Below, piece by piece: positions 6,089 through 62,005 of a stretch of DNA of 64,000 nucleotides. Source of the DNA: Narcine bancroftii (lineage: Eukaryota); contig NC_091471.1 of assembly GCF_036971445.1 (NCBI RefSeq), positions 349,618,001 to 349,682,000 of the forward strand. The letters are read 5' to 3'. A program made the translations under genes and the position numbers. The notes under the pieces were generated by a model. The model ran no database searches and was not told the DNA's origin. It worked only from the letters and a program-made list of their open reading frames with translations. Position 1 is the first letter of the stretch, and the number at the start of each line of letters is the position of its first letter.

Positions 6089-6140
6089 GTAAGAGTTCTA
6101 AGTATGATCAATTTGAGGGGGAATATTGTCATTCCTGTAT

Positions 6141-7035
6141 CTTTGGCTTGGCTTCGCGGACGAAGATTTATGGAGGGGGTAAAAAGTCCACGTCAGCTGC
6201 AGGCTCGTTTGTGGCTGACAAGTCCGATGCGGGACAGGCAGACACGATTGCAGCGGTTGCAGGGGAAAATTGGTTGGTTGGGGTTGGGTGTTGGGTTTTT
6301 CCTCCTTTGCCTTTTGTCAGTGAGGTGGGCTCTGCGGTCTTCTTCAAAGGAGGTTGCTGCCCGCCAAACTGTGAGGCGCCAAGATGGACGGTTTGAGGCG
6401 TTATCAGCCCACTGGCGGTGGTCAATGTGGCAGGCACCAAGAGATTTCTTTAGGCAGTCCTTGTACCTTTTCTTTGGTGCACCTCTGTCACGGTGGCCAG
6501 TGGAGAGCTCGCCATATAACACGATCTTGGGAAGGCGATGGTCCTCCATTCTGGAGACGTGACCCATCCAGCGCAGCTGGATCTTCAGCAGCGTGGACTC
6601 GATGCTGTCGACCTCTGCCATCTCGAGTACTTCGACGTTAGGGATGTAAGCGCTCCAATGGATGTTGAGGATGGAGCGGAGACAACGCTGGTGGAAGCGT
6701 TCTAGGAGCCGTAGGTGGTGCCGGTAGAGGACCCATGATTCGGAGCCGAACAGGAGTGTGGGTATGACAACGGCTCTGTATACGCTTATCTTTGTGAGGT
6801 TTTTCAGTTGGTTGTTTTTCCAGACTCTTTTGTGTAGTCTGCCAAAGGCGCTATTTGCCTTGGCGAGTCTGTTGTCTATCTCATTGTCGATCCTTGCATC
6901 TGATGAAATGGTGCAGCCGAGATAGGTAAACTGGTTGACCGTTTTGAGTTTTGTGTGCCCGATGGAGATGTGGGGGGGCTGGTAGTCATGGTGGGGAGCT
7001 GGCTGATGGAGGACCTCAGTTTTCTTCAGGCTGAC
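6141..7035 (-). mobile_element. 5'-truncated RTE-clade LINE (RT C-terminal part plus zinc-finger-like tail), reading frame still open, 9-bp TSD TTCCTGTAT
   Basis: ORF 6193..7215 contains 'FTYLGCTIS...RLAKANSAFGRL...LLFGSESW...LRWMGHVSRM'. (GCCAA)2 3' end. TSD at 6132-6140 and 7036-7044. Confidence 0.92.
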
Positions 7036-7050
7036 TTCCTGTATGTAGTA

Positions 7051-7734
7051 CAGTAAAATCCCCATTATCTGGCATTCAGTCAACTGGAAAGTCAAAAAAA
7101 ATTCAAATAAATAAATTATTTTAAATATAAATAAGAATAATTTAAGTTTTAAATAAAAGTTTAAAATCGTAAAAGTAAATGTTCTCTGAAGCAAAATACA
7201 ATCCCTTGGGAGCAAGCGTTCAGCCAGCGGAGCGCCCTGGTCGTAAATAAAGTTTCAATAAAGTTGTGTTTGAATAAAATGGTGGCGCCTGGATGAAAAG
7301 CCGGCTGATGCCGCTCACCACTGGGGCGAACCTCCCAAAGTCTCTCCCTATCCTTGCTTAGTAAGAGTCTTTACTTTTTACTCGTATTAAGTATATTAAT
7401 AAGGCTTTATCTGTAAACTTGGGGGGAGGGGTTTAATTATCACGACGGCACTGATAGCGTAGCAGTTAGCACAACACTGTTACTGCGCCAGCAACTGGAG
7501 TTCAAATTTAAATTTTGTAAGTTACAGGAATTACTAGATTAAAGCAAACTTTTACATAATTAAAGACGACAATATTTTTTTTTCCTAATTACTTTACATT
7601 TTGCACTGTCTTCAAAAGGTGTATTCTTAATGCAGGTGTATTAGGCATTATAAGAGTGAGTCTCAGTCAGTCAGAAAATTTGCATTTCCGTCATCCATAA
7701 TCCCTATAGATGCCAGATAATGGGGATTTTACTG
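7051..7734. mobile_element. Tc1/mariner (pogo/Tigger-like) MITE with perfect 25-bp TIRs and TA TSD
   Basis: CAGTAAAATCCCCATTATCTGGCAT at 7051-7075 and its exact reverse complement at 7710-7734, flanked by TA on both sides. Confidence 0.9.
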
Positions 7735-8880: not shown

Positions 8881-9158
8881 CAGTGGGGTGATATCGCCTC
8901 CAACCGTGCATCTTGGCGCCTCACAGTTCGGCGGGCAGCAACCTCCTTTGAAGAAGACCGCAGAGCCCACCTCACTGACAAAAGACAAAGGAGGAAAAAC
9001 CCAACACCCAACCCAACCCACCAATTTTCCCTTGCAACCGCTGCAACCGTGCCTGCCTGTCCCGCATCGGACTTGTCAGTCACCAACGAGCCTGCAGCAG
9101 ACATGGACATACCCCTCCATAAATCTTCTCCCGCGAAGCCATAAGAAAAAAAGAAAGA
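8881..9158 (+). mobile_element. RTE 3' fragment inserted in a Penelope-derived repeat
   Basis: Near-identical to the 3' end of the 6141-7035 element, with an A-rich tail. Confidence 0.88.
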
Positions 9159-9363
9159 ATAAAGTACACTGACCTGCTGAGTTACTCCAGTATTGTGTTT
9201 TTACCTCGAGAAACATTGAGTTCACTTTATATTAAACCAGCAAGCTGATACCAGTGGGGTTACACAAGTAACCCAGTGAAGTAAACAAGAGGGAAAGTTG
9301 CAACTCATCGCAATGAGTGGCTAGTGTGAATTCTTTTACAAGTCTTGTGCTTTGTCCTTCCAG

Positions 9364-27879: not shown

Positions 27880-30800
27880 AACTTTCAGGTCATGGGAACG
27901 GTTTGCATCTGAACTGGAAGAGGACTAATATCCTAGTGCTGTTCCGGTGGGTTTAAACTAGATTTGCAGGGGGAGCGGATCCAGAGTGGCAGAGCAGATA
28001 AGGTGTGAAAGAGGAAAAAGATGTTAAAATTGTATGCACTGTGAGAAATTAACGGGTTGTACGTGGTGGAATTATTCTAGGTGCATCTATTTCAATGCAA
28101 GGAGTTTTGTAGGAAAGGCAGACGAGCTTGGAGAGTGGATTGGCACGTGGAAATATGACATTGTTGCCATTGGTGAAACTTGGTTGCAGGAGGGGCAGGA
28201 CTGACAGCTCAATGTTCCAGGCTTCCGTTGCATTAGATACACAGAACAGGGAGGGTGGGATGGGGGGAGAGGAGTGGCATTGCTCAGGCAGGACAGACCA
28301 GAGGGCTCGTCTACTGAGGCTATATAGGTGGAGCTGAAGAACAGAAAAGGTGTGACTACATTCGTAGGGCTGTATTATAGACCACCCAATAGTTGGCGAG
28401 AATTGGAGGAGCAAATCTGTAGAGATAGCAGACAGCTGCAGGAAACACAAGGTTGTGATAGTAGGGGATTTTAATTTTCCATATATTGACTGGGACTCTT
28501 GAAAAAGGGCTGGATGGCTTGGAGTTTGTAAATGTGTTGAGGTAAGTTTTCTAAATCAATATATAGAGTTACCAACGAGAAAGAGCACATTTATAAATCA
28601 AAGCATAGAATATAGGAGCTGGGAGGTGATGTTGCAACTGTTCAAGGCATTGGTGAGGCCAAGTTTGGAGTATTGTGTGCAGATCTGGTCCCCAAATTAT
28701 AGGAAGGATATCAATAAGGTAGAGAGGGTACAGAGAAGATGTACTAAAATGTTGCCTGGATTTCAGTATTTGGAATACAAAGAAAGATTGAATAGACTGT
28801 GTCTCTATTCTAGAAGGTTGAGGGGGGATTTGATAGAGGTATATAAAATAATGAGGGGGATAGATAGAGTAGATGTGAATAGGCTCTTCCCCTTGAAGAT
28901 AGGTGAGATTGGAATGAGGGGTCATAAGTTGAGGGTTAGGGGGCAGAAATTATGAAGTAACATAAGAGGGAGCTTCTTCACTCAGAGGGCGGTGGCTGAG
29001 TGGAATGACCTTCCAGAAGAGGTGGTTGCAGCAGGGTCAATTTTGTCATTTAAGAGAGGGTTGGATGAGATGTGAGGGGACTGGTGGGTTATGGAGAGGG
29101 AGCAGGTAGGTGGGACTAGTAGAGTTCACTTAAATTGGTGCTGACTAGAGGGGTCATAATGGCCTGTTTCCGTACTGTAATTGTTATATGGTTAATTCTG
29201 GATGTTTGACACCTCGCTGTCAAAAGACAAAGGAGGAAAAACCCAACCCCAACCAACCAATTTTCCCTTGCAACTGCTGTAACCGTGTCTGCCTGTCCCG
29301 CATCGGACTTGTCAGCCACAAACGAGCCTGCAGCTGACGTGGACATTACCCCTCCATAAATCTTCGTCCGCGAAGCCAAGCCAAAGAAAAGAAAAGAATT
29401 CTGGATGTCCTATTAGGGAACGAGACAGCACAGGTGACAGAGTTGTGTGTCGGGCAATATTTTTGGGTCCAGTGATCATAATGCCATTAGTTTCAACTTA
29501 ATTATAGAGAAGGATAGTTTGGGCCTTGCATTGAGATTCTAACTTGGAGAAAGACTAATTGTGAGCAAATGAGAAAGAATCTAGAATGCGTGGATTGGGA
29601 TAAGTTGTTTTCCGGCAAGGATGTGCGAGGTAAATGGAGGACCTTCAAAGGTGAAATTTTGAGAGTACAGAGTTTGTATGTTCCTGTCAGGATCAAACGC
29701 AAGTTTAGAAGGCATAAGGAACCTTGGTTTTCGAGGGATATTGGGGATTTGGTTCGGAAGGTGTACAATAGGTATTGGCAACACAGAGCAAATGAAGTAC
29801 TTGAGGAATATAAAAAATGCAAGAAAAACCTCAAGAAAAATCAGGAAGATAAAAATAAGACATTAAGTTGTTTTGGCAGACAATATGAAGGAAAATTCTA
29901 AGTTTCTATAGGTATATTAAGAGCAAAAGGATAATGTGATAAAGTGGACAAAATTGGTCCCCTTGAAGATCAGAAATAGACAACTTTGTATGGAGCCAAA
30001 AGAGATGGGAGAGAACTTGAATGTTTTAAATCAATATTCACTCAGGAAAAGGGCAGAGATTCAAGGGATGTAAGGAATACAAGCAGTGAGATAATGGAAC
30101 CTATATAGATTAGAGGAGGAACTGCTTGCTGACTTAAATAAGGGTGGATAAATCCCCAGGGCCTGACAAGATATTCTCTCAAACCTTGAGGAACTCTAAT
30201 TTAGAAATTGCAGGGGCTCTGGCAGAAATGTTTAAAATATCCTTAGCCATGGGTGCGGTGCCAATGCTCATGTTGTTCTGCTGTTTATAAAGCTCCAAAA
30301 GTAACCCTGGAAATTTAGGACAGAGCCTGACGTCAGTAGTAGGTAAATTATTGGAAGATATTCTAAGAGATCAGATATACAAGCCAGAAACTAATTAGGG
30401 AGAGTCGACATGGCTTTGTGCAAGGCTAGACAGGAGAAGCCAGAGTAGTGGTTGATGATTGCATCTCAGAATGGAGGCCTGTGCCTCAGGGATTAATATT
30501 GGAACCACTGTTGTTTATCACCCGGATCATTGATATAGATGATAATGTGATAAAGTGGATCAGCAGGTTTGTATATAACACTAAGATTGGAGGTGTTTGT
30601 GGACAGCGAAAAAGTTTTCAAAGCTTGCAGAGGGATCTCAGCTGGAAAAATGGTCTAAAAATAGCAGATGGAATTTAATGCAGACCAAGTGAGAGGTGTT
30701 GCATTTTGGAAGGATAAACCAAGAAACTACTTACACAGTAAATGGTAGGGCACTAAGGAGTGTGGTAGAGCAGAGGGATCTGGGAATACATATACATAAA

Positions 30801-40892: not shown

Positions 40893-41740
40893 TTGACCCT
40901 TGTATTCCAGTGGGTTTTTTGTCTTCTCTTATTTTTTTTCATTGCCTTCTCCAATATATTTTCTCTTGTATATCTTAGGAATTTTACTAGAATGGATCTT
41001 GGTTTTTGTTGTGGTTGTGGTTTAGGGGCTAATGTTCTGTGTGCCCTTTCTATTTCCATTTCTTCCTGTAATTCTGGTCTTCCTAGGACCCTTGGGATCC
41101 ATTCTTTCATAAATTCTTTCATATTTTTGCCTTCTTCATCTTCCTTAAGGCCCACTATCTTTATATTGTTTCTTCTATTATAATTTTCCATTATATCTAT
41201 CTACTGAGCTAACAGCTCCTATGTTTCTTTAACTTTTTTATCAGATTCTTCTAATTTCTTTTTTAAGTCCTCTACTTCCATTTCTATGGCTGTTTCTCCT
41301 TCTTCCACCTTGTCTACTCTTTTTCCTATATCTGTCATGATCATCTCTAATCTATTCACTTTTTCTTCTGTACTTTTTATTCTTTTTATTTCACTGAATT
41401 CTTGTGTCTGCCATTCTTTTACTGTTTCCATATATTCTTTAAAAAAAATATATCCATGTACTTGCCCTTCCCTTCATCTTCCATTTCTCTGTGTTCTTCC
41501 TCCTCTTCTTCTGAGTCCACTCCAAGATCTGTGTCCTTTACCTCTGTCTCTTCTGGTTTTCTTGTTGGGTTGTTTATTTTGTTGGGTATTCTTGTTCTTC
41601 TTATTTTTATTAAAAATGTCTTGGTGTTAGTCTTCTTCCTCTGGGTTGGTCATCTGATATCCTATTTTTAGTCTCTTCCTTCTTGTTCTCGTTATTTTCT
41701 ATGTTTTCCTTTTGAGAGTCTTGCTGTTGTGTTGTCTTTT
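40893..41740 (-). mobile_element. Decayed L1 ORF1 fragment of the same family
   Basis: ORFs 40739..41191 and 41219..41431 ('MENYNRRNNIKIVGLKE', 'KEWQTQEF') match the ORF1 at 56992-58221, with frameshifts. Confidence 0.88.
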
Positions 41741-45717: not shown

Positions 45718-47417
45718 CAGACATGTCAAACTCAGGCCCATGGGCCAAATTTGGCCCGTGATATAATTATATTTGGCCCGCAAGATCATATCAAATATGT
45801 ATTGGAGATGGCCCGCTGGCCGCCGCGCCAGTAGAGCGCATGCACAGCTAATACTACAAATCCCAGAATGCTTTGCAAATGCATTGGCGCCGGCCCGTCA
45901 GCCTGCTAATCGCCCCCACCTCCTCTCTTTCATTAGCATCTGTGACCTGTCGCCCAACTCACATGTAATAAACCCCTTACGAAAAATGGCCAAACGAGAG
46001 ATAGAAAACAGGACCTTTCAAGACAGGTGGGAGGAAAACTCTGACCCCAGACTTTGATGAACTTGCATCTAAGAAGAGATGCCAAGTATCTGCTTTAGAC
46101 CCAGGTGCATCAGAGTAAATCACAGTGTAGCTTGGATTAATATTTTCTTTGGTTAACTTTGGACTGTTCATAGTTGAAAGATTGGATTTTCATTGAAGCA
46201 AGTTGTTATTTTTTTGACTTGTTGGCTTGTGGAAAAAAAAACATTTAAAAGGAGCTTAATGTTTGGCCTGGAAGTCAGCCTGAAGAAAACTGAGGTCCTC
46301 CATCAGCCAGCTCCCCACCATGACTACCAGCCCCCCCACATCTCCATCGGGCACACAAAACTCAAAACGGTCAACCAGTTTACCTATCTCGGCTGCACCA
46401 TTTCATCGGATGCAAGGATCAACAATGAGATAGACAACAGACTCGCCAAGGCAAATAGCGCCTTTGGAAGACTACACAAAAGAGTCTGGAAAAACAACCA
46501 ACTGAAAAACCTCACAAAGATTAGCGTATACAGAGCCGTTGTCATACCCACACTCCTGTTCGGCTCCGAATCATGGGTCCTCTACCGGCATCACCTATAG
46601 CTCCTAGAATGCTTCCACCAGCGTTGTCTCCACTCCATTCTCAACATTCATTGGAGCGACTTCATTTCCAACATGGAAGTACTTGAGATGGCAGAGGCCG
46701 ACAGCATCGAATCTATGCTGCTGAAGATCAAACTGCGCTGGGTAGGTCACGTCTCCAGAATGGAGGACCATCGCCTTCCCAAGATCGTGTTATATGGCGA
46801 GCTCTCCACTGGCCACCGAGACAGAGGTGCACCAAAGAAGAGATGCAAGGATTGCCTAAAGAAATCTCTTGGTGCCTGCCACATTGACCACCGCCAGTGG
46901 GCTGATCTCGCCTCAAACCGTGCATCTTGGCGCCTCACAGTTTGGCGGGCACCAACCTCCTTTGAAGAAGACCGCAGAGCCCACCTCACTGACAAAAGAC
47001 AAAGGAGGAAAAACCCAACACCCAACCCCAACCAACCAATTTTCACTTGCAACCGCTGCAACCATGTCTGCCAGTCCCGCATCGGACTTGTCAGCCACAA
47101 ACAAGCCTGCAGCTGACGTGGACATTACCCCTCCATAAATCTTCGTCCGCGAAGCCAAGCCAAAGAGAAAGGCCATAGAGAAATATTATTTATTGAATAT
47201 TTTATTTCTCATTTGTTAATGCTTCTTCTGGAAAGAGTTTAACCAAAACTATTATTAAACATTTATTTTAACAAGAAAAAGTTTAACATTACATATGTTG
47301 AAAGAAGAGAAAACATGCAGATGTTGTTGAAAATTTTCAATAAATATTTAGTTTGGCCTACGACTTAGTCCAAGTTTTTAATTTTGGCCCTCTGTGAATT
47401 TGAGTTTGACACCCCTG
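45718..47417 (+). mobile_element. Non-autonomous, internally deleted hAT (Charlie/Buster-type) DNA transposon
   Basis: TIRs CAGACATGTCAAACTCA and CAGGGGTGTCAAACTCA (reverse complement of 47401-47417). 8-bp TSD CTCTAAAG at 45710-45717 and 47418-47425. Transposase N- and C-terminal remnants at 45986-46118. Confidence 0.9.
46258..47168 (+). mobile_element. 5'-truncated RTE LINE with one premature stop, nested inside the hAT element
   Basis: ORFs 46193..46600 and 46673..47116 are nearly identical to the 6193..7215 protein. Confidence 0.92.
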
Positions 47418-48967: not shown

Positions 48968-49057
48968 ATGGCGGAGAAGCGCATCTCCCGCTGGTATTTC
49001 GGAGGCTTGGCGTCGTGCGGGGCGGCGTGTTGCACCCACCCGCTGGATCTGCTTAAG
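48968..49057 (+). CDS. SLC25A10: SLC25A10 (mitochondrial dicarboxylate carrier) exon 1: MAEKRISRWYFGGLASCGAACCTHPLDLLK
   Basis: Carrier signature PxDxxK. 'RWYFGGLASCGAACCTHPLDLLK' is diagnostic of the dicarboxylate carrier. Good Kozak context (gcgATGG) and aag|gtgagc donor. Confidence 0.96.
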
Positions 49058-49064
49058 GTGAGCT

Positions 49065-49690
49065 CAACCTCTGGCTCTGCTCTGCTTCTGGAGCAGCGTG
49101 CCGGACCACCGGGCACGGGGTCCTCCCGGAGAGGTGTACCGGACTACTGGGTTCTGCCCTGCTCCCGGAGCAGCTTGCCAGACCACCAGGCACAGGAAGG
49201 AGGTCTCCCAGAGCAGCTTTGCAGACCACCAGGCTCTGCCCCACTTCAGGAGGGCCGTGCTGGACCACCAGGCTCTGCTTCGCTCCTGGAGTAGCGTGCC
49301 AGATCACCGGGCACGGGGGGAGTGGTCTTCCCTAGCGGTGTGCCGGACCACCGGATTCTTCCGCTCCTGGAGCAGCGTGCCACACCACCGGGCATAGGGG
49401 GAGTGGTCTCCTGGAGTGACGTGCCGGACCACCAGGTTCTGCCCTGCTCCTGGAGCAGTGTGCCGGACCACCGGGCATGGGGGAGTGGTCTCCCAGAGGG
49501 ATGTGTTAGACCACTGGGTTCTGCCCTGCACCCAGAGCAGCTTGCCAGACCACCAGGCACAGGAAGGAGGACTCCCTGAGCAGCATTGCAGACCTTTGGG
49601 TTTGTCCCCATTCCGGGAGCGGCATACTGAACCGCCAGGCGCTGCCCCACTTCGGGAGTGCCGTGCTGGACCTCTGGGCACAGGGGCTGC
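49065..49690 (+). repeat. GC-rich degenerate tandem repeat (CTGCTCCTGGAGCAGCGTGCCGGACCACCGGGCA core) at the start of SLC25A10 intron 1
   Basis: More than 10 recurrences of 'g(g/a)ccacc(a/g)gg' modules. Confidence 0.8.
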
Positions 49691-52593
49691 ACCTGTTCCT
49701 GCCATGCAAACCCACACACAAGCCGCTGATGACGAGGCAGCCACTTAATTGCAGAGATTGTAGTTTGGCTGAAGCCCTTTGACCATCAACACTGCTGATG
49801 TCATCGCTGCCAACCCCCTTCTGGACCAGACTGCTGCATCTCATGGAGACATAAGGAAAGAACTCGTGAGCTAGAGGCACGAAAGTTGACTCCACTGGGA
49901 GGGATTGGGAACACAGCCTCAACATTCAGGGAAGTGGATTGAAGACAGATAAGGAGGAACTGCTTCTACTGGAATGGTTAATTAAGGTGGTGAGTGGGGG
50001 GAAAAGGTTGAGGACCACTGTTCTAGAGAGTAGTCAGTCTGTGAAATTCTCCGCCTGATGAAGGCTGCCTCGTTAAATGTATTTAAGAGATAGATTTTTG
50101 TGTTTGGGGGTTAATGGGGAACTGACCGCCTGTTCCTCTGTTCTCTTGTGTCCTCATTTTCATTAAGCCCACTTGTTTGGGTTCTGGTTAGAGTGCTTTG
50201 CCAGCTTGTTGCCAGAGCCAGTTCCGCAGGCTGTCATCTGACCTGTGGGCTTCTCCTTCCCTCTATAGTGCTCTTGACATCCCTTATTTTCCTCACCTCC
50301 CTCCTTTCCTGTGGCTCAGACCATCACACAAACCACTCTGTGTTCCCTCCATCAACTCCATCTATAACTTGGAAATGCAGCCAGTGTGATTAAAAAGATT
50401 AATCCCACACTGACCACACTCTTCTAACCACCCCCCACTACCTTCAGAAAGAAGATTTGAGTGATGGAGAGCGGCTGCCTTCTGGAACCACTGAGTGGCT
50501 GTGCTGAAGGGGCTCCCACAATGGGAGGTGTGAACGCATTTGCGTACACGGATTTGATCCAGTTATGTGACTTGCAGGTCATGGTGTCTAGACATCCGCC
50601 ACCCTCTGTGTAAAAATGTACCCCTGAAGTTTTCCATGAATTTTCCTCCCCTCCCCTCTGAAGCTTCTGAGGAAGCTGAGGCAAGACTGCACTTTCTAGC
50701 TGTGGCATGGACGAGGTTGGACCAGGTCAGGTTGTTGGGGGTGTTTACACTGAAGAACTTAAAGCTGTCGATGAGCTCCACCTCTGTGACATTGGTGTGG
50801 ACTGGGTAGTCAACCCCGACCCTTGTTCTGAAGTCTTCTGACCACTTCCTTTGCCTGACTGACGTTGAGGGAGAGGTCGCTGTTTTGACACCAAACCACT
50901 AGTCCCTCTGTCACCTGTCTACATTCCAACAGGATCCTGCCAATAACCATGGGGTCACCTGCAAATTTATAAATGGAACTGGAGTGGTGTTTGGCCGCAC
51001 AGTGATGGGTGTACAGGGAGTACAGTCAGGGGCTGAGGATGTAGCCTTGCAGGGCAGCACTGCTGAGGGTAATCATGGAAGAGGTGTTCTCACTGACTTT
51101 AGTGTGCAAGGCAGGAAGATATGGATCCTGTGGCAGGCCAAGGTCACAGTTTACTTTGGAGTTTACCTGATGCTGTTTCAACGAATACTCCCACCCTAAT
51201 CCTATATTAATCTGATTTTATTCTGGCCACCACTCATGGACACACCTGGAGCACTATTCAGCGGCTGGTTTATCTGCCAATCAGCCTGTCCTTGGGTGTG
51301 GGAAGTGTTCTGGGACAGAATCAAACCCAGGGCAAGGCAGCCACTCGTGGAGGAATATTGATGACGTTGGTGTGTGCGTGATTGATTGTGGGCTGGGGGA
51401 AGATAATCTCTGTTTACCTTTATCCAGTTAATCTATGCGAATTTGGAATTTGAATTGGACTTATGGACCTGAGCTCTGCACATGCCTGCAGAGAGGGCAG
51501 GGGGGAATGGGGGGGTTGGAGGGTGAGGGAAGGAACATGACCCTGTACAACACGTTATCCTTAACCCTCGTCCAACACCTTGACATTAACTGGGTAGGAC
51601 CAATGATTCATAGAAACGTAGGTGCAGAAGTAGGCCATTTGGAAACAACCTACCTTCGTCTAGTCTGTCTAATCCCTTAAGAATTAGAGTTTCACCACCA
51701 CCTCAAATGAGAAGGCTTTCAAGAAGGCCGTTTGGATCGAAGTCCATGCTGATACTGCAGAACCATCATAATCCCTCAGTGTCCTGCTCATTCTTTCCCC
51801 GAAAATATCCAGTCCCTTTCTGAAAACCAAACCCGCCCGCCCCCACCTCAGCCTTTTGGAGACTCAATCACTGGCTGCAGAAATTCTGTCACTTTTCTGG
51901 TAATTTTGACAACTCCCTTCGGCTTGGGACCTTAACTCTGTGCACAGCGCACAAACACACCCAGCACAGCACATGAACACACGCAGACACAGCGCACTAA
52001 CTTTGTGCTACCAAGAGCCCTTCCTCTCTGGTAAAAACACTATCTAAACCCTACAACATTTTAAATGGCTTTCTTGTGGATTCAACTTGCTAACTCATTC
52101 ATTTTGCTTGTGTCTGCGCGTGTGTAGGTTAGAACCATAGAGCAGAGGAACAGGCCCCTTCGGTCCTGCTAGTCTGTGCTGAACCTACTGACCTGTACCC
52201 AGTCCATAGCCCTCTATACCTCTCCCATCCATGTATCAATCCAAATTCCTCTTAAATGTTCAAATTGAGCCCACATTCACCACTTCAACTGGAAGCTTGT
52301 TACACACACCCACCACTCTCTTTTTTTTTTTTTTTTTTTTAAATTTTTTATTTTTCACACCATAAATCACAATAGCCATGATATACACTTTTTCTTTTCC
52401 ACACATTTACAGTGACTTTTTCTCCCTCCCCCCTCCCTCCTCCCAAGCCACCCCCCCATCCCTCCCCCCTCTCATCCATTTTAGTTATACAATCTAGGTT
52501 GCATTAATTCAGTTAGACAATGTTGTCATTCAACAAAAATACACCAGAAATTCTACTGAGTCCATTTTTTTCTTCTCTTCTCCTTCCATCAAC

Positions 52594-55500
52594 TTAGGTA
52601 ATGTTTGTTCCCGGTAGGTTTTCGCTATTGTATTTAATGTAAGGCTCCCATACTTGTTCGAATATTTCAATATTATTTCTTAAACTATATGTTATTTTTT
52701 CTAATGGAATACATTTATTCATTTCTATATACCATTGTTGTATTTTCAAATTATCTTCCAATTTCCAGGTTGACATAATACATTTTTTTGCTACAGCTAG
52801 GGCTATCTTAACAAATCTTTTTTGTGCATCCTCCAAGTCAATTCCAAATTCTTTATTTTTTATGTTACTTAGGAGAAAGATCTCTGGATTCTTTGGTATA
52901 TTGTTTTCTGTTATTTTATTTAATATCTGATTGAGATCATCCCAAAATTTTTCTACTCTCTCACATGTCCAGATTGCATGAATTGTTGTTCCCCTTTCTT
53001 TTTTACATCGAAAACATCTATCAGATACTGTTGGGTCCCATTTATTTAACTTTTGCGGTGTAATGTATAGTCTGTGTAACCAATTATATTGTATCATACG
53101 CAGCCTCGCATTTATTGTATTTCTCATCGTTCCAGAGCATAACTTCTCCCATGTTTCCTTTTTTATCTTTATATTTAAATCTTGTTCCCATTTTTGTTTA
53201 GTTTTACCATTTGTTTCCTCATTTTCCTTTTCTTGCAGTTTAATATACATATTTTTTATAAATCTTTTGATTAACATTGTATCTGTAATCACATATTCAA
53301 GGTTACTTCCCTCTGGTAAACTCAAGTTGCTTCCTAATTTATCTTTCAAGTAGGATCTCAGTTGGTAATATGCCAGCGCTGTATCTCCCGTTATATTGTA
53401 CTTATCTCTCATTTGTTCAAAGGATAAGAATCTACTTCCTGAAAAACAATTTTCTATTCTTTTAATCCCTTTTTTTTCCCATTTTCTAAAGGCAAGGTTG
53501 TCTATTGTAAAAGGGAGTAGCTTATTTTGCGTCAATATTAGTTTTGGTATTTGGTAATTTATTTTATTTCTTTCTACATGAATCTTCTTCCATATATTGA
53601 GGAGATGGTGTAATACTGGAGAAGTTCTATGTTGTACCAATTTTTCGTCCCATTTATATAATATGTGTTCAGGTATCTTTTCCCCTATTTTATCTAATTC
53701 TAGTCTCGTCCAGTCTGGTTTTTCCCTTGTTTGATAAAAATCTGATAGGTACCTTAATTGTGCGGCTCTATAATAATTTTTGAAGTTTGGCAATTGTAAG
53801 CCTCCTTGTTTATACCATTCTGTTAATTTGTCTAGTGCTATCCTCGGTTTCCCCCCTCTCCATAAAAATCTCCTTATTATTTTCTTTAACTCTTTGAAGA
53901 ATTTTTCTGTCAGTTGTATTGGCAATGCCTGAAATAAGTATAGTATCCTTGGAAAAATGTTCATTTTAATACAGTTTATCCTTCCTATCAGTGTTAGTGG
54001 TAGCTCTTTCCAATGCTCTAAATCGTCCTGTAATTTTTTCATTAGTGGATTGTAATTGAGTTTATATAATTGGCCTAGATTTTTGTTTATTTGCACACCT
54101 AGGTATCTTATTGCCTGCGTTTGCCATCTGAATGGGGATTCCTCCTTAAATTTTGAGAAATCCGCGTTATTCATAGGCATTGCTTCACTTTTATTTACGT
54201 TTATCTTGTATCCCGACACTTCTCCATATTCCTTCAATTTCTTATATAGTTCTTTTATTGATAGTTCTGGTTCTGTTAAGTACACTATCACATCATCCGC
54301 AAACAGACTGATTTTATATTCCCTGTCTTTTATTTTTATTCCTTTTATATTATTATCTCTTCTTATCGATTCTGCTAGTGGTTCTATAGCTAGCGCAAAC
54401 AATAATGGTGATAGTGGGCATCCCTGCCGCGTTGACCTGCTTAAGTTAAATTGCTTTGATACATGTCCATTTACTGTCACTTTCGCTAACGGTCCCTTAT
54501 ATAATGCTTTAATCCAATTAATATACTTCTCCGGTAAACTGAATTTTTGCAATACTTTGAACAAGTAATTCCATTCTACTCTGTCGAAGGCCTTCTCTGC
54601 GTCTAAAGCAACTGCTACTGCCGGTGCTTTATTTCCTTCTACTGCATGAATTAAGTTAATAAATTTACAAATATTGTCTGTTGTGCGTCTTTTTTTGATA
54701 AATCCAGTTTGGTCTAAATTTACCATTTTCGGTACCTGTTCTGCTAATCTGTTCGCTAATAGTTTAGCTATTATCTTATAATCTATGTTTAGCAGAGATA
54801 TTGGTCTATATGACGCTGGTGAGAGTGGATCTTTCCCTTGTTTTAGTATCACTGTAATTATTGCTGTTTTACATGAATCTGGTAAGTTTTGTGTCTCATC
54901 AATCTGGTTGATTACATCCAGGAGGGGCGGTATTATTAGGTCTTTAAATGTTTTGTAGAATTCTATTGGGAGTCCATCCTCTCCTGGTGTCTTATTATTT
55001 GGTAAATTTTTTATTATCTCTTGTATTTCTACTGTTCCAAATGGTTCTGTTAATTTATTTTGTTCCTCTATTTGTAGTTTTGGTAGTTCAATTTTAGTCA
55101 AAAATTCATCTATTTTCCCTTCTTTCCCTTCGTTTTCGGTTCGGTATAATTGTTCATAGAATTCTCTGAAGTTTTCCTTAATTTCTTTTGGATTATATGT
55201 AATTTGTTTGTCTTTTTTCCTTGTTGCCAATACCATTTTCTTAGTTTGCTCTGTCTTAAGCTGCCATGCTAGGATTTTGTGTGTTTTTTCCCCTAGTTCA
55301 TAATATTTCTGTTTTGTCTTCATTATATTCTTCTCCACCTTATATGTTTGTAATGTTTCATATTTTATTTTTTTATCCGCCAATTCTCTTCTTTTGGTTG
55401 TATCTTCCTTTATTGCTAATTTTTTTTCTATGTTTATTATTTCCCTTTCCAACTGCTCTGTTTCCTGATTATAGTCCTTCTTCATCTTGGTTGCATAACT

Positions 55501-56391
55501 TATTATTTGCCCTCTAATGAATGCTTTCATTGCGTCCCATAGTATAAACTTATCTTCCACTGATTCCGTATTTACTTCAAAGTACATTTTTAATTGTTTT
55601 TCAATAAATTCTCTAAAATCCTGTCTTTTAAGTAGCATGGGGTTTAATCTCCATCTATACATTCTTGGAGGGATGTCTTCTAGCTCTATTGCCAATAACA
55701 GGGGTGAGTGGTCCGATAATAGTCTAGCTTTATATTCCGTTTTCCTAACTCTCCCTTGTATGTGGGCTGATAACAGGAATAGGTCTATCCTTGAGTATGT
55801 TTTATGTCTAGTCGAGTAGTATGAGTATTCCTTTTCTTTTGGGTTTTGTTTCCTCCATATGTCCACAAGTTTCATTTCTTGCATTGATTTAATTATAAAT
55901 TTGGTTACTTTGTTCTTCCTGTTAATTTTTTTCCCCGTTTTATCCATATTTGGATCCAAATTCAGATTGAAATCCCCTCCTATTAGTATGTTCCCTTGCG
56001 TATTAGCTACCTTCAAAAAGATATCTTGCATAAACTTTTGATCTTCTTCGTTAGGTGAATATATATTAAGTAGATTCCAAAGCTCTGAATATATCTGACA
56101 TTTTATCATAACATATCTCCCTGCTGGATCTATTATTTCCTCTTCTATTTTAAATGGCACATTTTTGCTAATTAATATAGCCACTCCTCTTGCTTTTGAA
56201 TTATACGATGCTGCTGTTACATGTCCTACCCAATCTCTCTTTAATTTCTTGTGCTCCAATTCAGTTAAATGTGTTTCTTGGACAAATGCTATATCTATTT
56301 TTTCCTTTTTCAGTAAATTTAGTAGTTTCTTCCTTTTAATTTGGTTATGTATTCCATTAATATTTAGAGTCATATAGTTCAGCGTAGCCAT
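52594..56391 (-). CDS. L1 ORF2p, 1265 aa: APE endonuclease, reverse transcriptase and CCHC zinc knuckle
   Basis: EN motifs NING, QETH, GDFN, SRID, SDH. RT motifs PGEDG, YRPISLLN, DAEKAFD, RQGCPLSP, FADD, YLGV. C-terminal CFRC..H...C. Confidence 0.97.
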   Translation of the reverse strand: MATLNYMTLNINGIHNQIKRKKLLNLLKKEKIDIAFVQETHLTELEHKKLKRDWVGHVTAASYNSKARGVAILISKNVPFKIEEEIIDPAGRYVMIKCQIYSELWNLLNIYSPNEEDQKFMQDIFLKVANTQGNILIGGDFNLNLDPNMDKTGKKINRKNKVTKFIIKSMQEMKLVDIWRKQNPKEKEYSYYSTRHKTYSRIDLFLLSAHIQGRVRKTEYKARLLSDHSPLLLAIELEDIPPRMYRWRLNPMLLKRQDFREFIEKQLKMYFEVNTESVEDKFILWDAMKAFIRGQIISYATKMKKDYNQETEQLEREIINIEKKLAIKEDTTKRRELADKKIKYETLQTYKVEKNIMKTKQKYYELGEKTHKILAWQLKTEQTKKMVLATRKKDKQITYNPKEIKENFREFYEQLYRTENEGKEGKIDEFLTKIELPKLQIEEQNKLTEPFGTVEIQEIIKNLPNNKTPGEDGLPIEFYKTFKDLIIPPLLDVINQIDETQNLPDSCKTAIITVILKQGKDPLSPASYRPISLLNIDYKIIAKLLANRLAEQVPKMVNLDQTGFIKKRRTTDNICKFINLIHAVEGNKAPAVAVALDAEKAFDRVEWNYLFKVLQKFSLPEKYINWIKALYKGPLAKVTVNGHVSKQFNLSRSTRQGCPLSPLLFALAIEPLAESIRRDNNIKGIKIKDREYKISLFADDVIVYLTEPELSIKELYKKLKEYGEVSGYKINVNKSEAMPMNNADFSKFKEESPFRWQTQAIRYLGVQINKNLGQLYKLNYNPLMKKLQDDLEHWKELPLTLIGRINCIKMNIFPRILYLFQALPIQLTEKFFKELKKIIRRFLWRGGKPRIALDKLTEWYKQGGLQLPNFKNYYRAAQLRYLSDFYQTREKPDWTRLELDKIGEKIPEHILYKWDEKLVQHRTSPVLHHLLNIWKKIHVERNKINYQIPKLILTQNKLLPFTIDNLAFRKWEKKGIKRIENCFSGSRFLSFEQMRDKYNITGDTALAYYQLRSYLKDKLGSNLSLPEGSNLEYVITDTMLIKRFIKNMYIKLQEKENEETNGKTKQKWEQDLNIKIKKETWEKLCSGTMRNTINARLRMIQYNWLHRLYITPQKLNKWDPTVSDRCFRCKKERGTTIHAIWTCERVEKFWDDLNQILNKITENNIPKNPEIFLLSNIKNKEFGIDLEDAQKRFVKIALAVAKKCIMSTWKLEDNLKIQQWYIEMNKCIPLEKITYSLRNNIEIFEQVWEPYIKYNSENLPGTNIT

Positions 56392-56991
56392 TTTATATTT
56401 TGTTTATCTTCTCTTTCCGTTTTTCCATCATTACCTTTCCTCCTTTTCCATTTCTGTTTTCTTATTTTCAACTCTTTACCAGACAACATTCCTACAACAT
56501 CCAACATTTTCCTTATTCTCCTATTTCTATCTTCTTTATCCCCAATCTCCCCTTCCCCTCCTGAGTTGCCCTTTATCCCTTGTCGGACAACCACATCTCC
56601 CCTCTCCATTTGGATTTGCGAATCCACTCGCAAGCGTCAACTGATTTTGCAGTGACCGCTCTTTTCCCCCCACCCAGCCCCCCCCAGAAAAGATTTCGTT
56701 TTTTATACGTCACAAAGGTCACTCTTTTAGTTCCCTCCTTATTCTCTCTATTCCATTACCTTCCCTTATTAATTCTTGTCTATACTCTCTATGTTTTCCT
56801 CTAATTACAGATACTTTCACATATGCCCATTGTCTCTATTCACTCTTATACCTCTTTACCCGCATACATATCAATCGTGGTCATTTTTACCCTCCTTACC
56901 CGTCTTCATCCCTCAGTCTATTTTTGTCTTTACCCACATACATATCAATCGTGATAATTTTTGCTCTCATTACCCGTCTTCATCCCTCAGT

Positions 56992-58221
56992 CTATTTTTG
57001 TAATTGTTCTGCAAATTTTCGTGCTTCTTCTGGATCCGAGAATAGTCTGTTTTGTTGTCCTGGAATAAATATTTTCAATACCGCAGGATGCTTCAGTGTA
57101 AATTTATATCCTTTCTTCCATAAAATCGCTTTTGCTGCATTGAACTCTTTTCTCTTCTTTAGGAGTTCAAAGCTTATATCTGGATAAATGAAGATTTTTT
57201 GCCCTTTATACTCCAGTGGTTTGTTGCCCTCTCTTACTTTTTCCATTGTCTTCTCAAGTACCTTTTCTCTTGTAGTATATCTTAGGAATTTTACTACAAT
57301 AGATCTTGGTTTTTGTTGTGGTTGTGGTTTAGGGGCCAATGCTCTATGTGCCCTTTCTATTTCCATTTCTTGCTGTAGTTCTGGACATCCTAGGGCCTTA
57401 GGGATCCATTCTTTTATAAACTCCCTCATATTCTTGCCTTCTACATCTTCCTTAAGGCCCACTATCTTTATGTTATTTCTTCTGTTATAATTTTCCATTA
57501 TATCTATTTTTTGGGCTAGTAATTCTTGTGTCTCTTTAGTTTTTTTATTAGATTCCTCCAATTTCTTTTTTAAGTCTTCTACCTCCATTTCTGCTGCTAT
57601 TGCCCGTTCTTCCATCTTGTCCATTTTTTTCCCCATTTCTGTTAAGGTCATATCCATTTTATTTATTTTCTTTTCTGTGTTGTCTATTCTTCTTCTTAAA
57701 TCATTGAATTCCTGTGTTTGCCATTCTTTAAATGACTCCATGTATCCTCTAACAAGAGCAAGTACCTCCTTTACCTTGCCTATCTTTTCTTCTTCTATTT
57801 CCCTGTACTCTTCCTCTTCCTCTTCTTCTTCCTCTAGGTTGACCATCTGTTGTTTCTTTGCTGCCCTTTCCTCCTCTTCTTTCTTGTTTCTATTGTCTTC
57901 TGTGGTCTCTTCTTGCTGCAGGTGTTCTGCAGCTGTCGTTGCCGGCTGTGGAGATCGACTCCCCAGCTGGTCCCCCCTCCCGTCGGTGTGTTTTTTTTCA
58001 TGCGCATCGCGCATGCGCGAGGAGTCGCGCATGCGCGGTTGCGCACTTTTACTCGGCTCTGTGAGCCATTGTTGTAGTTCTCTTTCTACCGACCTGAGGT
58101 AGTGGGGTCTTCTCTCCACAGCGGGCCTCTTCGGACAGGTAAGGCCTTCACCTTTTTCCTCCGTTGTCTTCTCTTCCTCTCTTCTTTCCGTTGATTTTGA
58201 TTTTTCTCCTTTTGTCTCCAT
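56992..58221 (-). CDS. L1 ORF1p (coiled coil, RRM and CTD; Transposase_22-like), up to 409 aa
   Basis: 'ENYNRRNNIKIVGLKE', 'EIERAHR', 'PRSIVVKF' and 'IFIYPDIS' are L1 ORF1 hallmarks. The true start codon is uncertain. Confidence 0.92.
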   Translation of the reverse strand: METKGEKSKSTERREEEKTTEEKGEGLTCPKRPAVERRPHYLRSVERELQQWLTEPSKSAQPRMRDSSRMRDAHEKKHTDGRGDQLGSRSPQPATTAAEHLQQEETTEDNRNKKEEEERAAKKQQMVNLEEEEEEEEEYREIEEEKIGKVKEVLALVRGYMESFKEWQTQEFNDLRRRIDNTEKKINKMDMTLTEMGKKMDKMEERAIAAEMEVEDLKKKLEESNKKTKETQELLAQKIDIMENYNRRNNIKIVGLKEDVEGKNMREFIKEWIPKALGCPELQQEMEIERAHRALAPKPQPQQKPRSIVVKFLRYTTREKVLEKTMEKVREGNKPLEYKGQKIFIYPDISFELLKKRKEFNAAKAILWKKGYKFTLKHPAVLKIFIPGQQNRLFSDPEEARKFAEQLQK

Positions 58222-58715
58222 CTTCTTTCCACCTTTATATTCACTTTTCTTTAACTTGTATTTCTGTGCCTTTGTATTTTCTCTTGTTTTTCCCGACTTT
58301 TCTGGAGAGGGCTGGAGTTCACCGTCCGGCCACTACTCCATCACGTGACTCCTCTCTCACACCCACCACTCTCTGTGTGAAAATGTTCCCCCTCACGTTC
58401 CCCCTAAACTTTTCACCTTTCACTCTTAACCCATGTCCTCTGGTTTGTATCTCACCTACCTTCAGTGGAAAAAGCCTATCTATATTTACTCAGTTTATCA
58501 AATCTCCCCTCATTCTTCTAAGCTCCAGGGAATAGTCCTAACCTGTTTAACCTTTCCCTGTAACTCAGTTCATGAAGTCGGGCAACCTCCTAGTAAAGCT
58601 TCTCTGTACTCTTTCAATCTTATTGATATCTTTCCTGTAGTTCGGTGACCAAAACTGCACACAATACTCCAGATTTGTCCTCACCAATATCTCATACAAC
58701 TTTAACATAACATTT

Positions 58716-59980
58716 TAGATCCAGCAGGGAGGTATGTAATGATAAAGTGTCAGATATATTCAGAATTTTGGAATTTGCTCAATGTATATGCATCCAATAA
58801 AGAGGATCAAAAATTTATGCAAGATATGTTTTTGAAGATTGCAGATACGCAGGGGAATATACTGATAGAAGGGGACTTTAACCTTAATTTGGACTCAAAG
58901 ATGTACAAAACTGGACAAAAGACTAGCAGAAAGAACAAAGTAACCAAATTTATGGTTAAATCGATCCAGGAAATGCAACTTTTGGATATATGGAGGAGAC
59001 AACACCCAAAGGAGAAGGAATACTCATATTATTCGGGTAGACATAAAACATACTCAAGGATAGACCTGTTCCTGTTGACAGCCCACATCCAAGGGAGAGT
59101 TAGAAAAACGGAATATAGAGCTAGATTGTTATCGGATCACTCACCCCTGTTATTAGCAATAGAGCTGGAGGACATCCCACCAAGAACGTATAGATGGAGA
59201 TTAAACTCCATGCTACTTAAAAGACAGGATTTTAGAGAATTCATTGAGCGCCAAATTAAAATGTACTTTGAAATAAATACGGAATCAGTGAAAGATAAGT
59301 TTATACTATGGGATGTAATGAAAGCCTTCATCAGAGGGCAGATAATAAGCTATGTAACTAAGATGAAGAAGGACTACAATCGGGAAATAGAACAACTGGA
59401 AAGGGAAATAGCAAGTACAGAAAAAGAATGAGCAACAAGGGAAGATACAACAAAAAGAAGAGAATTGGCGGACAAAAAATAAAATATCAAACACTACAAT
59501 CATACAAGGTGGAGAAGAACATAATGAAGACAAAACAGAAGCATTATGAGCTAGGAGAAAAAACACACAAAATACTAGCTTGGCAGCTTAAGACAGAACA
59601 AACTAAAAGAATGGTATTGGCATCATGGAAAAAGGACAAACAAATTACATATAACCCAACGGAGATCAATGAAAACTTCAAGGAATTCTACGAGCAATTA
59701 TATCGAACTGAGAACGAAGGGAAAGAAGACAAAATAGATGAATTTCTAGCTAAAATTGAACTACTGAAATTGCAAGAAGAGGAGCAAAACAAATTAATAA
59801 AATCATTTGAAATAGAGGAAATACAGGATATATTTTAAAAAATCTACTGAACAATAAAACGCCAGGAGAGGACGGACTCCCAATAGAATTCTAAAAAACA
59901 TTTAAAGACTTATTAATTCCTCCTCTCCTGGAAGTAATGAACCAGATTGAAGAAACACAAAACATGCCAGATTCATGCAA
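58716..59980 (+). mobile_element. Internal L1 ORF2 fragment (EN to the start of RT) of the same family, decayed, flanked by the 12-bp TSD AACATAACATTT
   Basis: ORFs 58739..59431 and 59428..59838 are highly similar to the intact ORF2 but carry a frameshift and stops. Direct repeats lie at 58704-58715 and 59981-59992. Confidence 0.9.
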
Positions 59981-60419
59981 AACATAACATTTCAACTCCT
60001 ATACTCAAGGATCTCGAATCTCCATTGCCTTTCCTTCCTTTTCCAAATGACGAGTTTACAATGTGCATCAAAATTCTTACTTGCTGCAGAAACACCTGTA
60101 ATAGTAAAGTAACTGAATTAATTTAAAAGTTCCAATAATGCACAAAAGATATAAATATTCACAGTAATCGTAGTGCAAAGAAAAGAACTTTGCAGAAGTG
60201 CAGACAGACTTTTTGTGGTGTTGGAGCAGTCCCTGGTCAGTGTAACAAGGAAGGGTTCAAGAGCCTGATGGATGTTGGAAAGAAACTGTTCCTGAACTAA
60301 GTGGTGCTGGTCTTAAGGCTTCTGAACCTGGTGTCCGAAGATAGCAGTGAGAGGAGGTTATGACCAGGGTGATGGGGGTCCTTTATGATGTTGGCTGCCT
60401 TCTTGAGACAGCAATAACA

Positions 60420-60750
60420 TGTAGGCACGCCACACAGTGCACAAACACACACAGGGACATCATACGGCGCACAGCACACTAACGCAGGCACAGCGCAGAA
60501 ACACACGTAGGTGCTCCGCACTCTGGACTAACACATGCAGGCACTCTACACAGTGTTGAAACACACGCAGATGCATCACACAGTGCACTAACAGTAGGCA
60601 CAGCACACAAACACACCCAGCACAGCACATGAACACATGCAGATACAGCGCACTAACATGCATGTGCTCTGCACAGCACTCTAGCGCATGCTGCACTGTG
60701 AGGGGAGCACGAACACTCATGCGTGCGGTGTTCCACACAGCACACAAGCA
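60420..60750 (+). repeat. Degenerate CA/GCA-rich low-complexity repeat
   Basis: Runs of cacacag and gcacag. Confidence 0.75.
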
Positions 60751-61885: not shown

Positions 61886-62005
61886 GTTCACCTTCAGACC
61901 CAGCAGGAGGTTAGGATGCGGATGACAGGAATGGCCCTCCACGTGATCCGCAACGATGGTGTCCTGGCTCTCTACAATGGGCTGAGTGCTTCACTGTGCC
62001 GACAG
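61886..62005 (+). CDS. SLC25A10: SLC25A10 exon 2: VHLQTQQEVRMRMTGMALHVIRNDGVLALYNGLSASLCRQ; the gene continues beyond the window
   Basis: Within ORF 61769..62272. ggcag acceptor and gtatca donor; 120 nt. Intron 1 spans 49058-61885 (12.8 kb). Confidence 0.95.

Follow-up and report, generated by a model that had tools for sequence, protein, structure and literature searches.

An intact L1-clade retrotransposon in intron 1 of SLC25A10 of the electric ray Narcine bancroftii, probably a member of a very large family

Introduction

LINE1 elements have been found in all vertebrate lineages (PMC4350176), and the steps by which L1 moves, namely transcription from an internal promoter, binding of the RNA in cis, nicking of the target and target-primed reverse transcription, are established L1 biology (PMC2912911). 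In fish L1 copy numbers are low (PMC5203782), with teleost non-LTR (non-long terminal repeat) elements at copy numbers two orders of magnitude below those of mammals (PMC3381678), and non-mammalian animals are reported as having a high share of intact L1 copies (PMC5203782). L2 and CR1 are prevalent in the elephant shark (PMC5381603), and sharks and rays are among the most repeat-rich, with the Repeat content section of that paper giving no breakdown for L1 (PMC13320880). This article concerns a window of 64,000 nt from the ray Narcine bancroftii (contig NC_091471.1, positions 349,618,001 to 349,682,000 of the forward strand; all positions below are those of the window), in which a 6,037-bp element sits in intron 1 of SLC25A10, the gene for the mitochondrial dicarboxylate carrier. 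With good confidence it is best explained as an intact full-length L1-clade retrotransposon, antisense to the gene, that likely arrived by recent target-primed reverse transcription and probably belongs, as one copy among many, to a young branch of a very large Narcine L1 family.

The L1s of this lineage had been described in the original prediction as little studied, which agrees with the literature searched, where no paper on Narcine or batoid L1 was found; that literature lay outside Repbase, Dfam, most subscription journals and supplements, and the supplements of PMC5203782 and PMC13320880 may list shark or ray L1. The words 'shark', 'Callorhinchus' and 'cartilaginous' are absent from the main text of PMC5203782. 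RefSeq already names one N. bancroftii protein, P0121, as 'LINE-1 retrotransposable element ORF1 protein'.

The human L1Hs (LINE-1; ORF2p, PDB 8sxt; ORF1p, PDB 2ykp) is alike in having two open reading frames (ORFs), an APE-type endonuclease, a reverse transcriptase (RT) and a CCHC motif, and a Type II ORF1. It is alike too in its G-rich 3' untranslated region (UTR), its poly(A), a duplication of 16/17 bp, a length of about 6 kb and the conserved catalytic columns. Human L1 has a 5' UTR of about 900 nt and a spacer of 63 nt, whereas the ray element has a 5' UTR of 136 nt and a spacer of 600 nt, and it differs further in the CTCT/GT context of its nick and in the acidic, low-complexity N-terminus of its ORF1. 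The nearest ORF2 relatives belong to a teleost L1 lineage, that of Kryptolebias marmoratus (P0003, UniRef A0A3Q3BNZ9) together with the unnamed P0001, P0002, P0004 and P0143; P0001-P0004 are 44-53% identical to the ray ORF2, and the ray element differs from the Kryptolebias lineage by a long end branch (0.64), a distinct letter make-up and an apparently high abundance. Amongst batoids, L1 ORF1 occurs in RefSeq models from N. bancroftii itself (P0121, P0122, P0123 and P0146) and from Mobula, Hemitrygon and Hypanus (P0125-P0134), those of the other rays being 34-48% identical to the ORF1 of the element; all of these are separate, more diverged copies, most of them with host-gene names.

Structure of the element

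On the minus strand the element extends from 58357 to 52321, and in its own 5' to 3' direction it consists of a 5' UTR of 136 nt (58222..58357), ORF1 of 1,230 nt (58221..56992), an inter-ORF spacer of 600 nt (56392..56991), ORF2 of 3,798 nt (56391..52594) and a 3' UTR of 253 nt (52341..52593), followed by a poly(A) tail of pure A20 (52321..52340, a T-run of exactly 20 on the plus strand). Both frames run from ATG to stop with the terminal stop only, ORF1 encoding 409 aa and ORF2 1,265 aa. The spacer is purine-rich, and a 74-bp tandem duplication (56853-57001, 92%) duplicates the ORF1 stop region, whilst the 3' UTR has a tract rich in G (about 52422-52473) and, nearer the tail, an AATAAA (52347-52352).

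The product of ORF2 combines an APE-type endonuclease, an RT and a C-terminal CCHC motif, with Pfam matches to Exo_endo_phos (PF03372, residues 7-228, E 2e-12) and RVT_1 (PF00078, residues 519-768, E 1e-42) and a weak match to PF13966, and human L1 ORF2p matches it over residues 5-1201 (E 7e-185). The endonuclease motifs LNING, QETH, NIY, GDFN, YSRID and SDH and the RT motifs DAEKAFD and FADD (697-700) align with human ORF2p, and the CCHC set is C1126-C1129-H1138-C1143. Residues N10, E39, Y111, D140, N142, D203, H228, D597, D699 and D700 are all present, as is the CCHC set, and we take their roles to be those they have in human L1. ORF1 is matched by human ORF1p over residues 197-403 (E 1e-13), with PF02994 (Transposase_22) falling below its cut-off (15.8 against 22.4 bits) and giving no match at E 0.001. 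A CCHC knuckle was looked for in ORF1 and is absent, the only cysteines being 29 and 279, and the protein is classed by its predicted make-up (coiled coil, RRM, CTD) as Type II in the scheme given in the excerpt of PMC5203782.

The same excerpt defines the L1 clade by a length of 6-8 kb, a 5' UTR, two ORFs with a spacer and a 3' UTR with poly(A), which is the layout found here, and it calls an element 'potentially active' when ORF2 is at least 3 kb long with a start, a stop, an RT and no inactivating change, all of which this copy has. Judged by these structural tests of membership the element is one of the L1 clade, expected to work as a mammalian L1 does, and on its sequence it is predicted to be competent. 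The anatomy originally proposed, that of an intact full-length L1 with both frames open, endonuclease, FADD and CCHC motifs, an A20 tail and a G-rich tract in the 3' UTR, has therefore been borne out.

Insertion site and host gene

An exact direct repeat of 17 bp flanks the element, with its tail-side copy at 52305..52321 and its 5'-side copy at 58358..58374; as its final T is common with the tail, it can also be read as 16 bp with that T assigned to the tail, and the perfect 16-bp duplication first reported holds as 16/17 bp. A length of 7-18 bp is cited for mammalian and zebrafish L1 duplications (PMC6007223), a range that includes both readings. A match of at least 16 bp at a spacing of about 6,050 bp was found in one of 1,000 random window pairs, namely at the L1 site, the next best being 13. 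The element splits an older dispersed repeat into a left half (52130..52321, with 74-89% matches to other copies in the window) and a right half (58375..58715). A paralogous copy of this repeat at 23991-23716 joins left-flank to right-flank sequence and has the shared part of the duplication once, thus the direct repeat is a true target duplication. The host repeat is presumably CR1/L2-like.

This site probably arose by the steps known for L1. An internal promoter at the 5' end of a source copy would drive its transcription, and the RNA would be bound in cis by ORF1p and ORF2p, after which the endonuclease would nick the plus strand at the pyrimidine/purine step CTCT/GT (primer end CTCTCT). 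The nicked 3' end would then prime on the poly(A) through a single T:A pair, and the target duplication would result from a further nick 16-17 bp off. The nick context is CTCT/GT in the 17-bp reading or TCTC/TG in the 16-bp reading, which are one site; a mammalian-type TTTT/AA nick is not found at this L1 site, that rule being a preference. Read on the minus strand, the 5' target duplication begins with the same letters as the element itself, AGAGAG (58352-58357), and a single contig joint of the public run X5 terminates at 58352, so that the family start may lie about 5 nt inward with AGAGAG perhaps extra.

The location in SLC25A10 intron 1 that the original prediction gave is confirmed by protein matches on both sides. 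Coding exon 1 (48968..49057, plus strand, 30 aa) is identical at 29/30 positions to residues 1-30 of the carrier of the sawfish Pristis pectinata (P0149) and ends in a GT donor, and coding exon 2 (61886..62005, plus strand, 40 aa), which follows an AG acceptor, is 100% identical to the N. bancroftii carrier P0148. Exon 1 does not match the N-terminus of P0153, which is likely an alternative isoform. The intron measures 12,828 bp, and 6,775 bp without the insert, a factor of 1.89 that fits the earlier statement of a rough doubling. As the L1 is antisense to SLC25A10, with 3.2 kb and 3.5 kb between it and the exons on either side, its effect on the gene is likely nil or small.

Abundance of the family

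Public contigs were aligned to 49700-58700 at 92% likeness and four of 15 runs were used (X1, X5, X7 and X10), X5 being RNA by guess only, with contigs that carry no transcription information. X1 has 69,138 contigs on this stretch, some from the host repeat, and a check for near-identical copies, which the original prediction had proposed, finds many, with 13,559 of these contigs at 99% or more. The median summed depth of the 19 L1 bins in X1 is 660,136, about 82,500 times the flank, which is not a copy number since short overlapping contigs count one base repeatedly; our guess is that this overlap inflates it two- to threefold. As the three flank contigs of X1 (depth 7.8-8.8) show 0 differences, the assembly itself may have been made from X1, which is thus not independent. 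Two exact X7 contigs, 111-112 bp long, reach depths of 1,779 and 1,402 against 2.3 for one flank contig, an excess of about 600-770 times the flank that is rough with the flank value near its floor. We infer a family size of order 10^4 copies at 92% identity or more. Depth in the three 5'-most L1 bins is 0.40 of that in the three 3'-most bins, therefore many copies of the family extend to ORF1.

Age of the insertion

The insertion had been called very recent, a claim that stands for the lineage, which is young, and for frames whose openness suggests a divergence below about 1%, whilst the age of the insertion itself is bounded only loosely. Variants in the contigs were considered through the 40 best-supported of 203, 20 of which lie in the ORFs. 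Of these 20, which set the copy apart from other members of its family, 17 are synonymous, against an expected fraction of 0.20-0.29 (P at most 3e-7), and the window letter has a summed depth of at least 8,000 in X1 at all 20 sites, so none is private. It follows that the 20 listed differences arose in replicating lineages under purifying selection and not after insertion. The probability that no stop arises in 1,674 codons is 0.32 at 0.5% neutral change, 0.10 at 1% and 0.003 at 2.6%, and when indels are added at an assumed 0.1 per substitution, the probability that both frames remain open is 0.03 at 0.5% and 0.0007 at 1%. The open ORFs thus argue for a divergence since insertion of under about 1%, a value that can correspond to a long time where a lineage evolves slowly.

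The retained CpGs at the 5' end, which had been put forward as a sign of youth, are real as an observation, the observed/expected ratio being 0.62-0.83 in the 5' 600 nt and 0.53 over the element against 0.30 in the window, but the RT region is as high at about 1.0. An older L1 piece nearby (58716..59984, plus strand), about 86% identical to the element, retains as many CpGs, with six CG present only in the old piece (TG/CA in the intact copy) and two the reverse, and CpG retention was accordingly rejected as a marker of youth. This comparison rests on the 58716-59984 piece, an ORF1 piece elsewhere in the window having too few CpGs.

As to the possible polymorphism named in the original prediction, no exact empty-site joint occurs among the joints listed (15 of 264, and 12 of the 105 bridged), with 52302-52357 omitted. 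Joints across the element (52213-58444, 52232-58358, 52278-58358 and others) were considered as an empty allele and rejected, being off the duplication and with short sides, and are read as paralogous copies of the host repeat. As regards organisms B and C, a single 165-bp flank contig of X7 shows 0 differences and X10 has a faint flank depth, neither of them bridging a junction.

A number of points weigh against a recent and competent insertion from a large young family. Private damaging changes may lie among the other 163 of the 203 variants, the synonymous excess coming from a filtered set, and the element was selected for its intactness, which inflates its apparent youth. Its sequence and that of the X10 contigs disagree at 41 of 1,564 letters (2.6%), most X1 depth has another letter at many sites so that the element is not the commonest form, and at several sites (53224, 53389) X5 or X7 has zero depth for the window letter, contigs being prone to lose rare variants. 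The abundance is read from summed depth, in a run that may be the source of the assembly. The nick site is unlike the human TTTT/AA preference (PMC2912911), and both the activity and the transcription of this copy are predictions.

The alternative that survives best, although we regard it as unlikely, is that of an older fixed copy, which would have landed as much as a few million years ago, would owe its intact frames to luck and would have lost its competence through missense change or promoter silencing. Some of order 10^4 copies would stay open by chance at the frequencies given above for 0.5% and 1%, and such a copy is also favoured by the distance from the X10 contigs, by a CpG content no higher than that of the older neighbour and by the elephant shark genome being among the slowest evolving (PMC5381603). 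It is opposed by the pure A20 and perfect 17-bp duplication, by the lack of any private change among the 20 listed ORF differences with their synonymous excess, and by the low chance of two open frames once indels are allowed for; in stickleback, moreover, long elements are reported as not fixed (PMC3381678). The reading of a recent insertion is consequently preferred.

Relationships of ORF1 and ORF2

The closest relatives of ORF2 among 7,999 candidates scored are 53% and 49% identical (both unnamed) and 45% identical (Kryptolebias), with none above 53%. An RT tree of 48 rows, made up of the query, the top 12 long matches, the named matches, every fourth of the others (from 120 listed) and P0143, places ORF2 in a six-member branch with fish elements, namely Kryptolebias and unnamed relatives (SH-aLRT 100); it holds neither Repbase or Dfam L1 or Tx1 references nor an outgroup, and alone cannot decide between L1 and Tx1. 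Recent horizontal transfer from teleosts was considered and is unsupported at 45% identity and with a long branch.

That the element is of Tx1 type, or otherwise target-specific and homing to the host repeat, is very improbable. Homing would account for the odd nick context, CTCT/GT instead of TTTT/AA, and for a second L1 insertion in the same repeat copy only 340 bp off, and both L1 and Tx1 groups do occur in fish (PMC5203782). However, ORF1 is Type II without the CCHC knuckle, and knuckle-bearing ORF1s are those that accompany Tx1 in the same excerpt, whilst the alignment to the human L1 endonuclease is ungapped in the loop at about 190-203. The two insertions are moreover at unrelated sequences and in opposite orientations, and a third L1 piece (40893-41512) is 11 kb off. 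Least credible of all is an assembly product, in which merging or polishing blended the reads of a number of near-identical copies into an open-frame sequence cleaner than any real copy. Although the very high family depth permits misplacement of reads and 0 contigs cross a junction or the whole element, the duplication is perfect and the paralogous repeat has the matching site in a single copy, X1 contains 0.87 of the sampled 31-letter words, and the window has minority letters at many sites (at inter-ORF position 56708, 204 of 165,346 X1 depth) that majority polishing would erase.

Relatives of ORF1 within N. bancroftii (P0121, P0122, P0123 and P0146) are 66-88% identical, and the 88% relative shares its C-terminal end with the ORF1 of the element. 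That this end, QK-stop, is a private frameshift was rejected, as P0146 has the same end, with P0121 extending 7 residues further. The ray gene models P0122, P0123, P0146, P0125, P0128 and P0129 are wholly or largely L1 ORF1, and the host-gene names on such models include FAM122B, GrpE-like, mitochondrial transcription elongation factor, TADA1, ADAT1 and STXBP6; these host-named models are either annotation errors or L1-host chimeric transcripts.

Candidate promoter features

Within the 5' UTR the 8-mer TCACGTGA stands at element +10 (58341-58348) and is the sole such 8-mer in the window, and the 5' end that bears it is a putative internal promoter. Two GCGCATGCGC palindromes, the only two in the window, lie inside ORF1 (58009..58036, minus strand) at +322 and +340 and possibly act as a downstream promoter element. 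We take TCACGTGA to be an E-box and GCGCATGCGC to be NRF1-like. As the 5' UTR is so short, our guess is that the promoter may reach into ORF1.

The GCGCATGCGC palindromes encode R-M-R in ORF1, and 7 of the 23 ORF1 relatives scanned, Mobula and Hypanus included, have an [R/H]MR motif within their first 170 residues, in a region otherwise poorly conserved at the protein level. Contigs of X1, X5, X7 and X10 have a 31-nt skip between the two palindromes.

Other repeats in the window

The other L1 pieces in the window are fragments, as the original prediction had it in calling the other autonomous elements decayed. The older piece at 58716..59984 corresponds to ORF2 aa 86-509, is 85.7% identical with two frameshifts and both ends cut, and lies in the same host repeat as the intact L1 in the opposite orientation. 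It has no poly(A) and is flanked by a 12-bp direct repeat (58704-58715 / 59981-59992), its 3' end overlapping that repeat at an internal L1 AAAACA, and by this comparison it looks like an internal priming product; tailless retrocopies with internal priming have been described in therians (PMC5322556). With the third piece, from the ORF1 region (40893-41512, minus strand, 80% identical), the L1 family has at least three age layers within 64 kb.

Another LINE, presumably RTE-like, has 3' pieces at 6134-7065, 46270-47172, 8881-9160 and 29210-29399 with 87-94% mutual identity, and its copy at 6193-7065 is open for 290 codons. In SLC25A10 intron 1 similar CA-rich stretches of 60 bp, found by eye, flank the nested repeat block (51942-52001 and about 60590-60660), and an 82-bp CpG-rich tandem array (49073-49686) begins 15 bp past the exon 1 donor.

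Significance

The single insertion matters little, intact intronic L1s being expected wherever an L1 family is active. The original prediction offered the element as a ready candidate active L1, which holds in that it has the features of a potentially active copy, although, being one of very many, it is a convenient rather than a special candidate. Its value is as a handle on a lineage for which the literature searched has little on L1, and the more rewarding subject is not the insertion but the extent of the family, which in a fish probably reaches a mammal-like L1 copy number. A tentative proposal, to which we give a little less than an even chance, is that Narcine has undergone a mammal-like L1 burst, in which one still-active family has tens of thousands of copies at above 92% identity with a large full-length share, a compact promoter extending as far as ORF1 and an endonuclease of relaxed preference. 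If true, this burst would break the low-copy pattern of fish, and the element would be a ready clone for the first L1 assay of a cartilaginous fish. Young copies of order 10^4 in Narcine would, if that number is true, be an independent high-copy amplification of L1 outside mammals, and the family would then be useful for asking whether it is the element, host defence or DNA loss that sets copy number.

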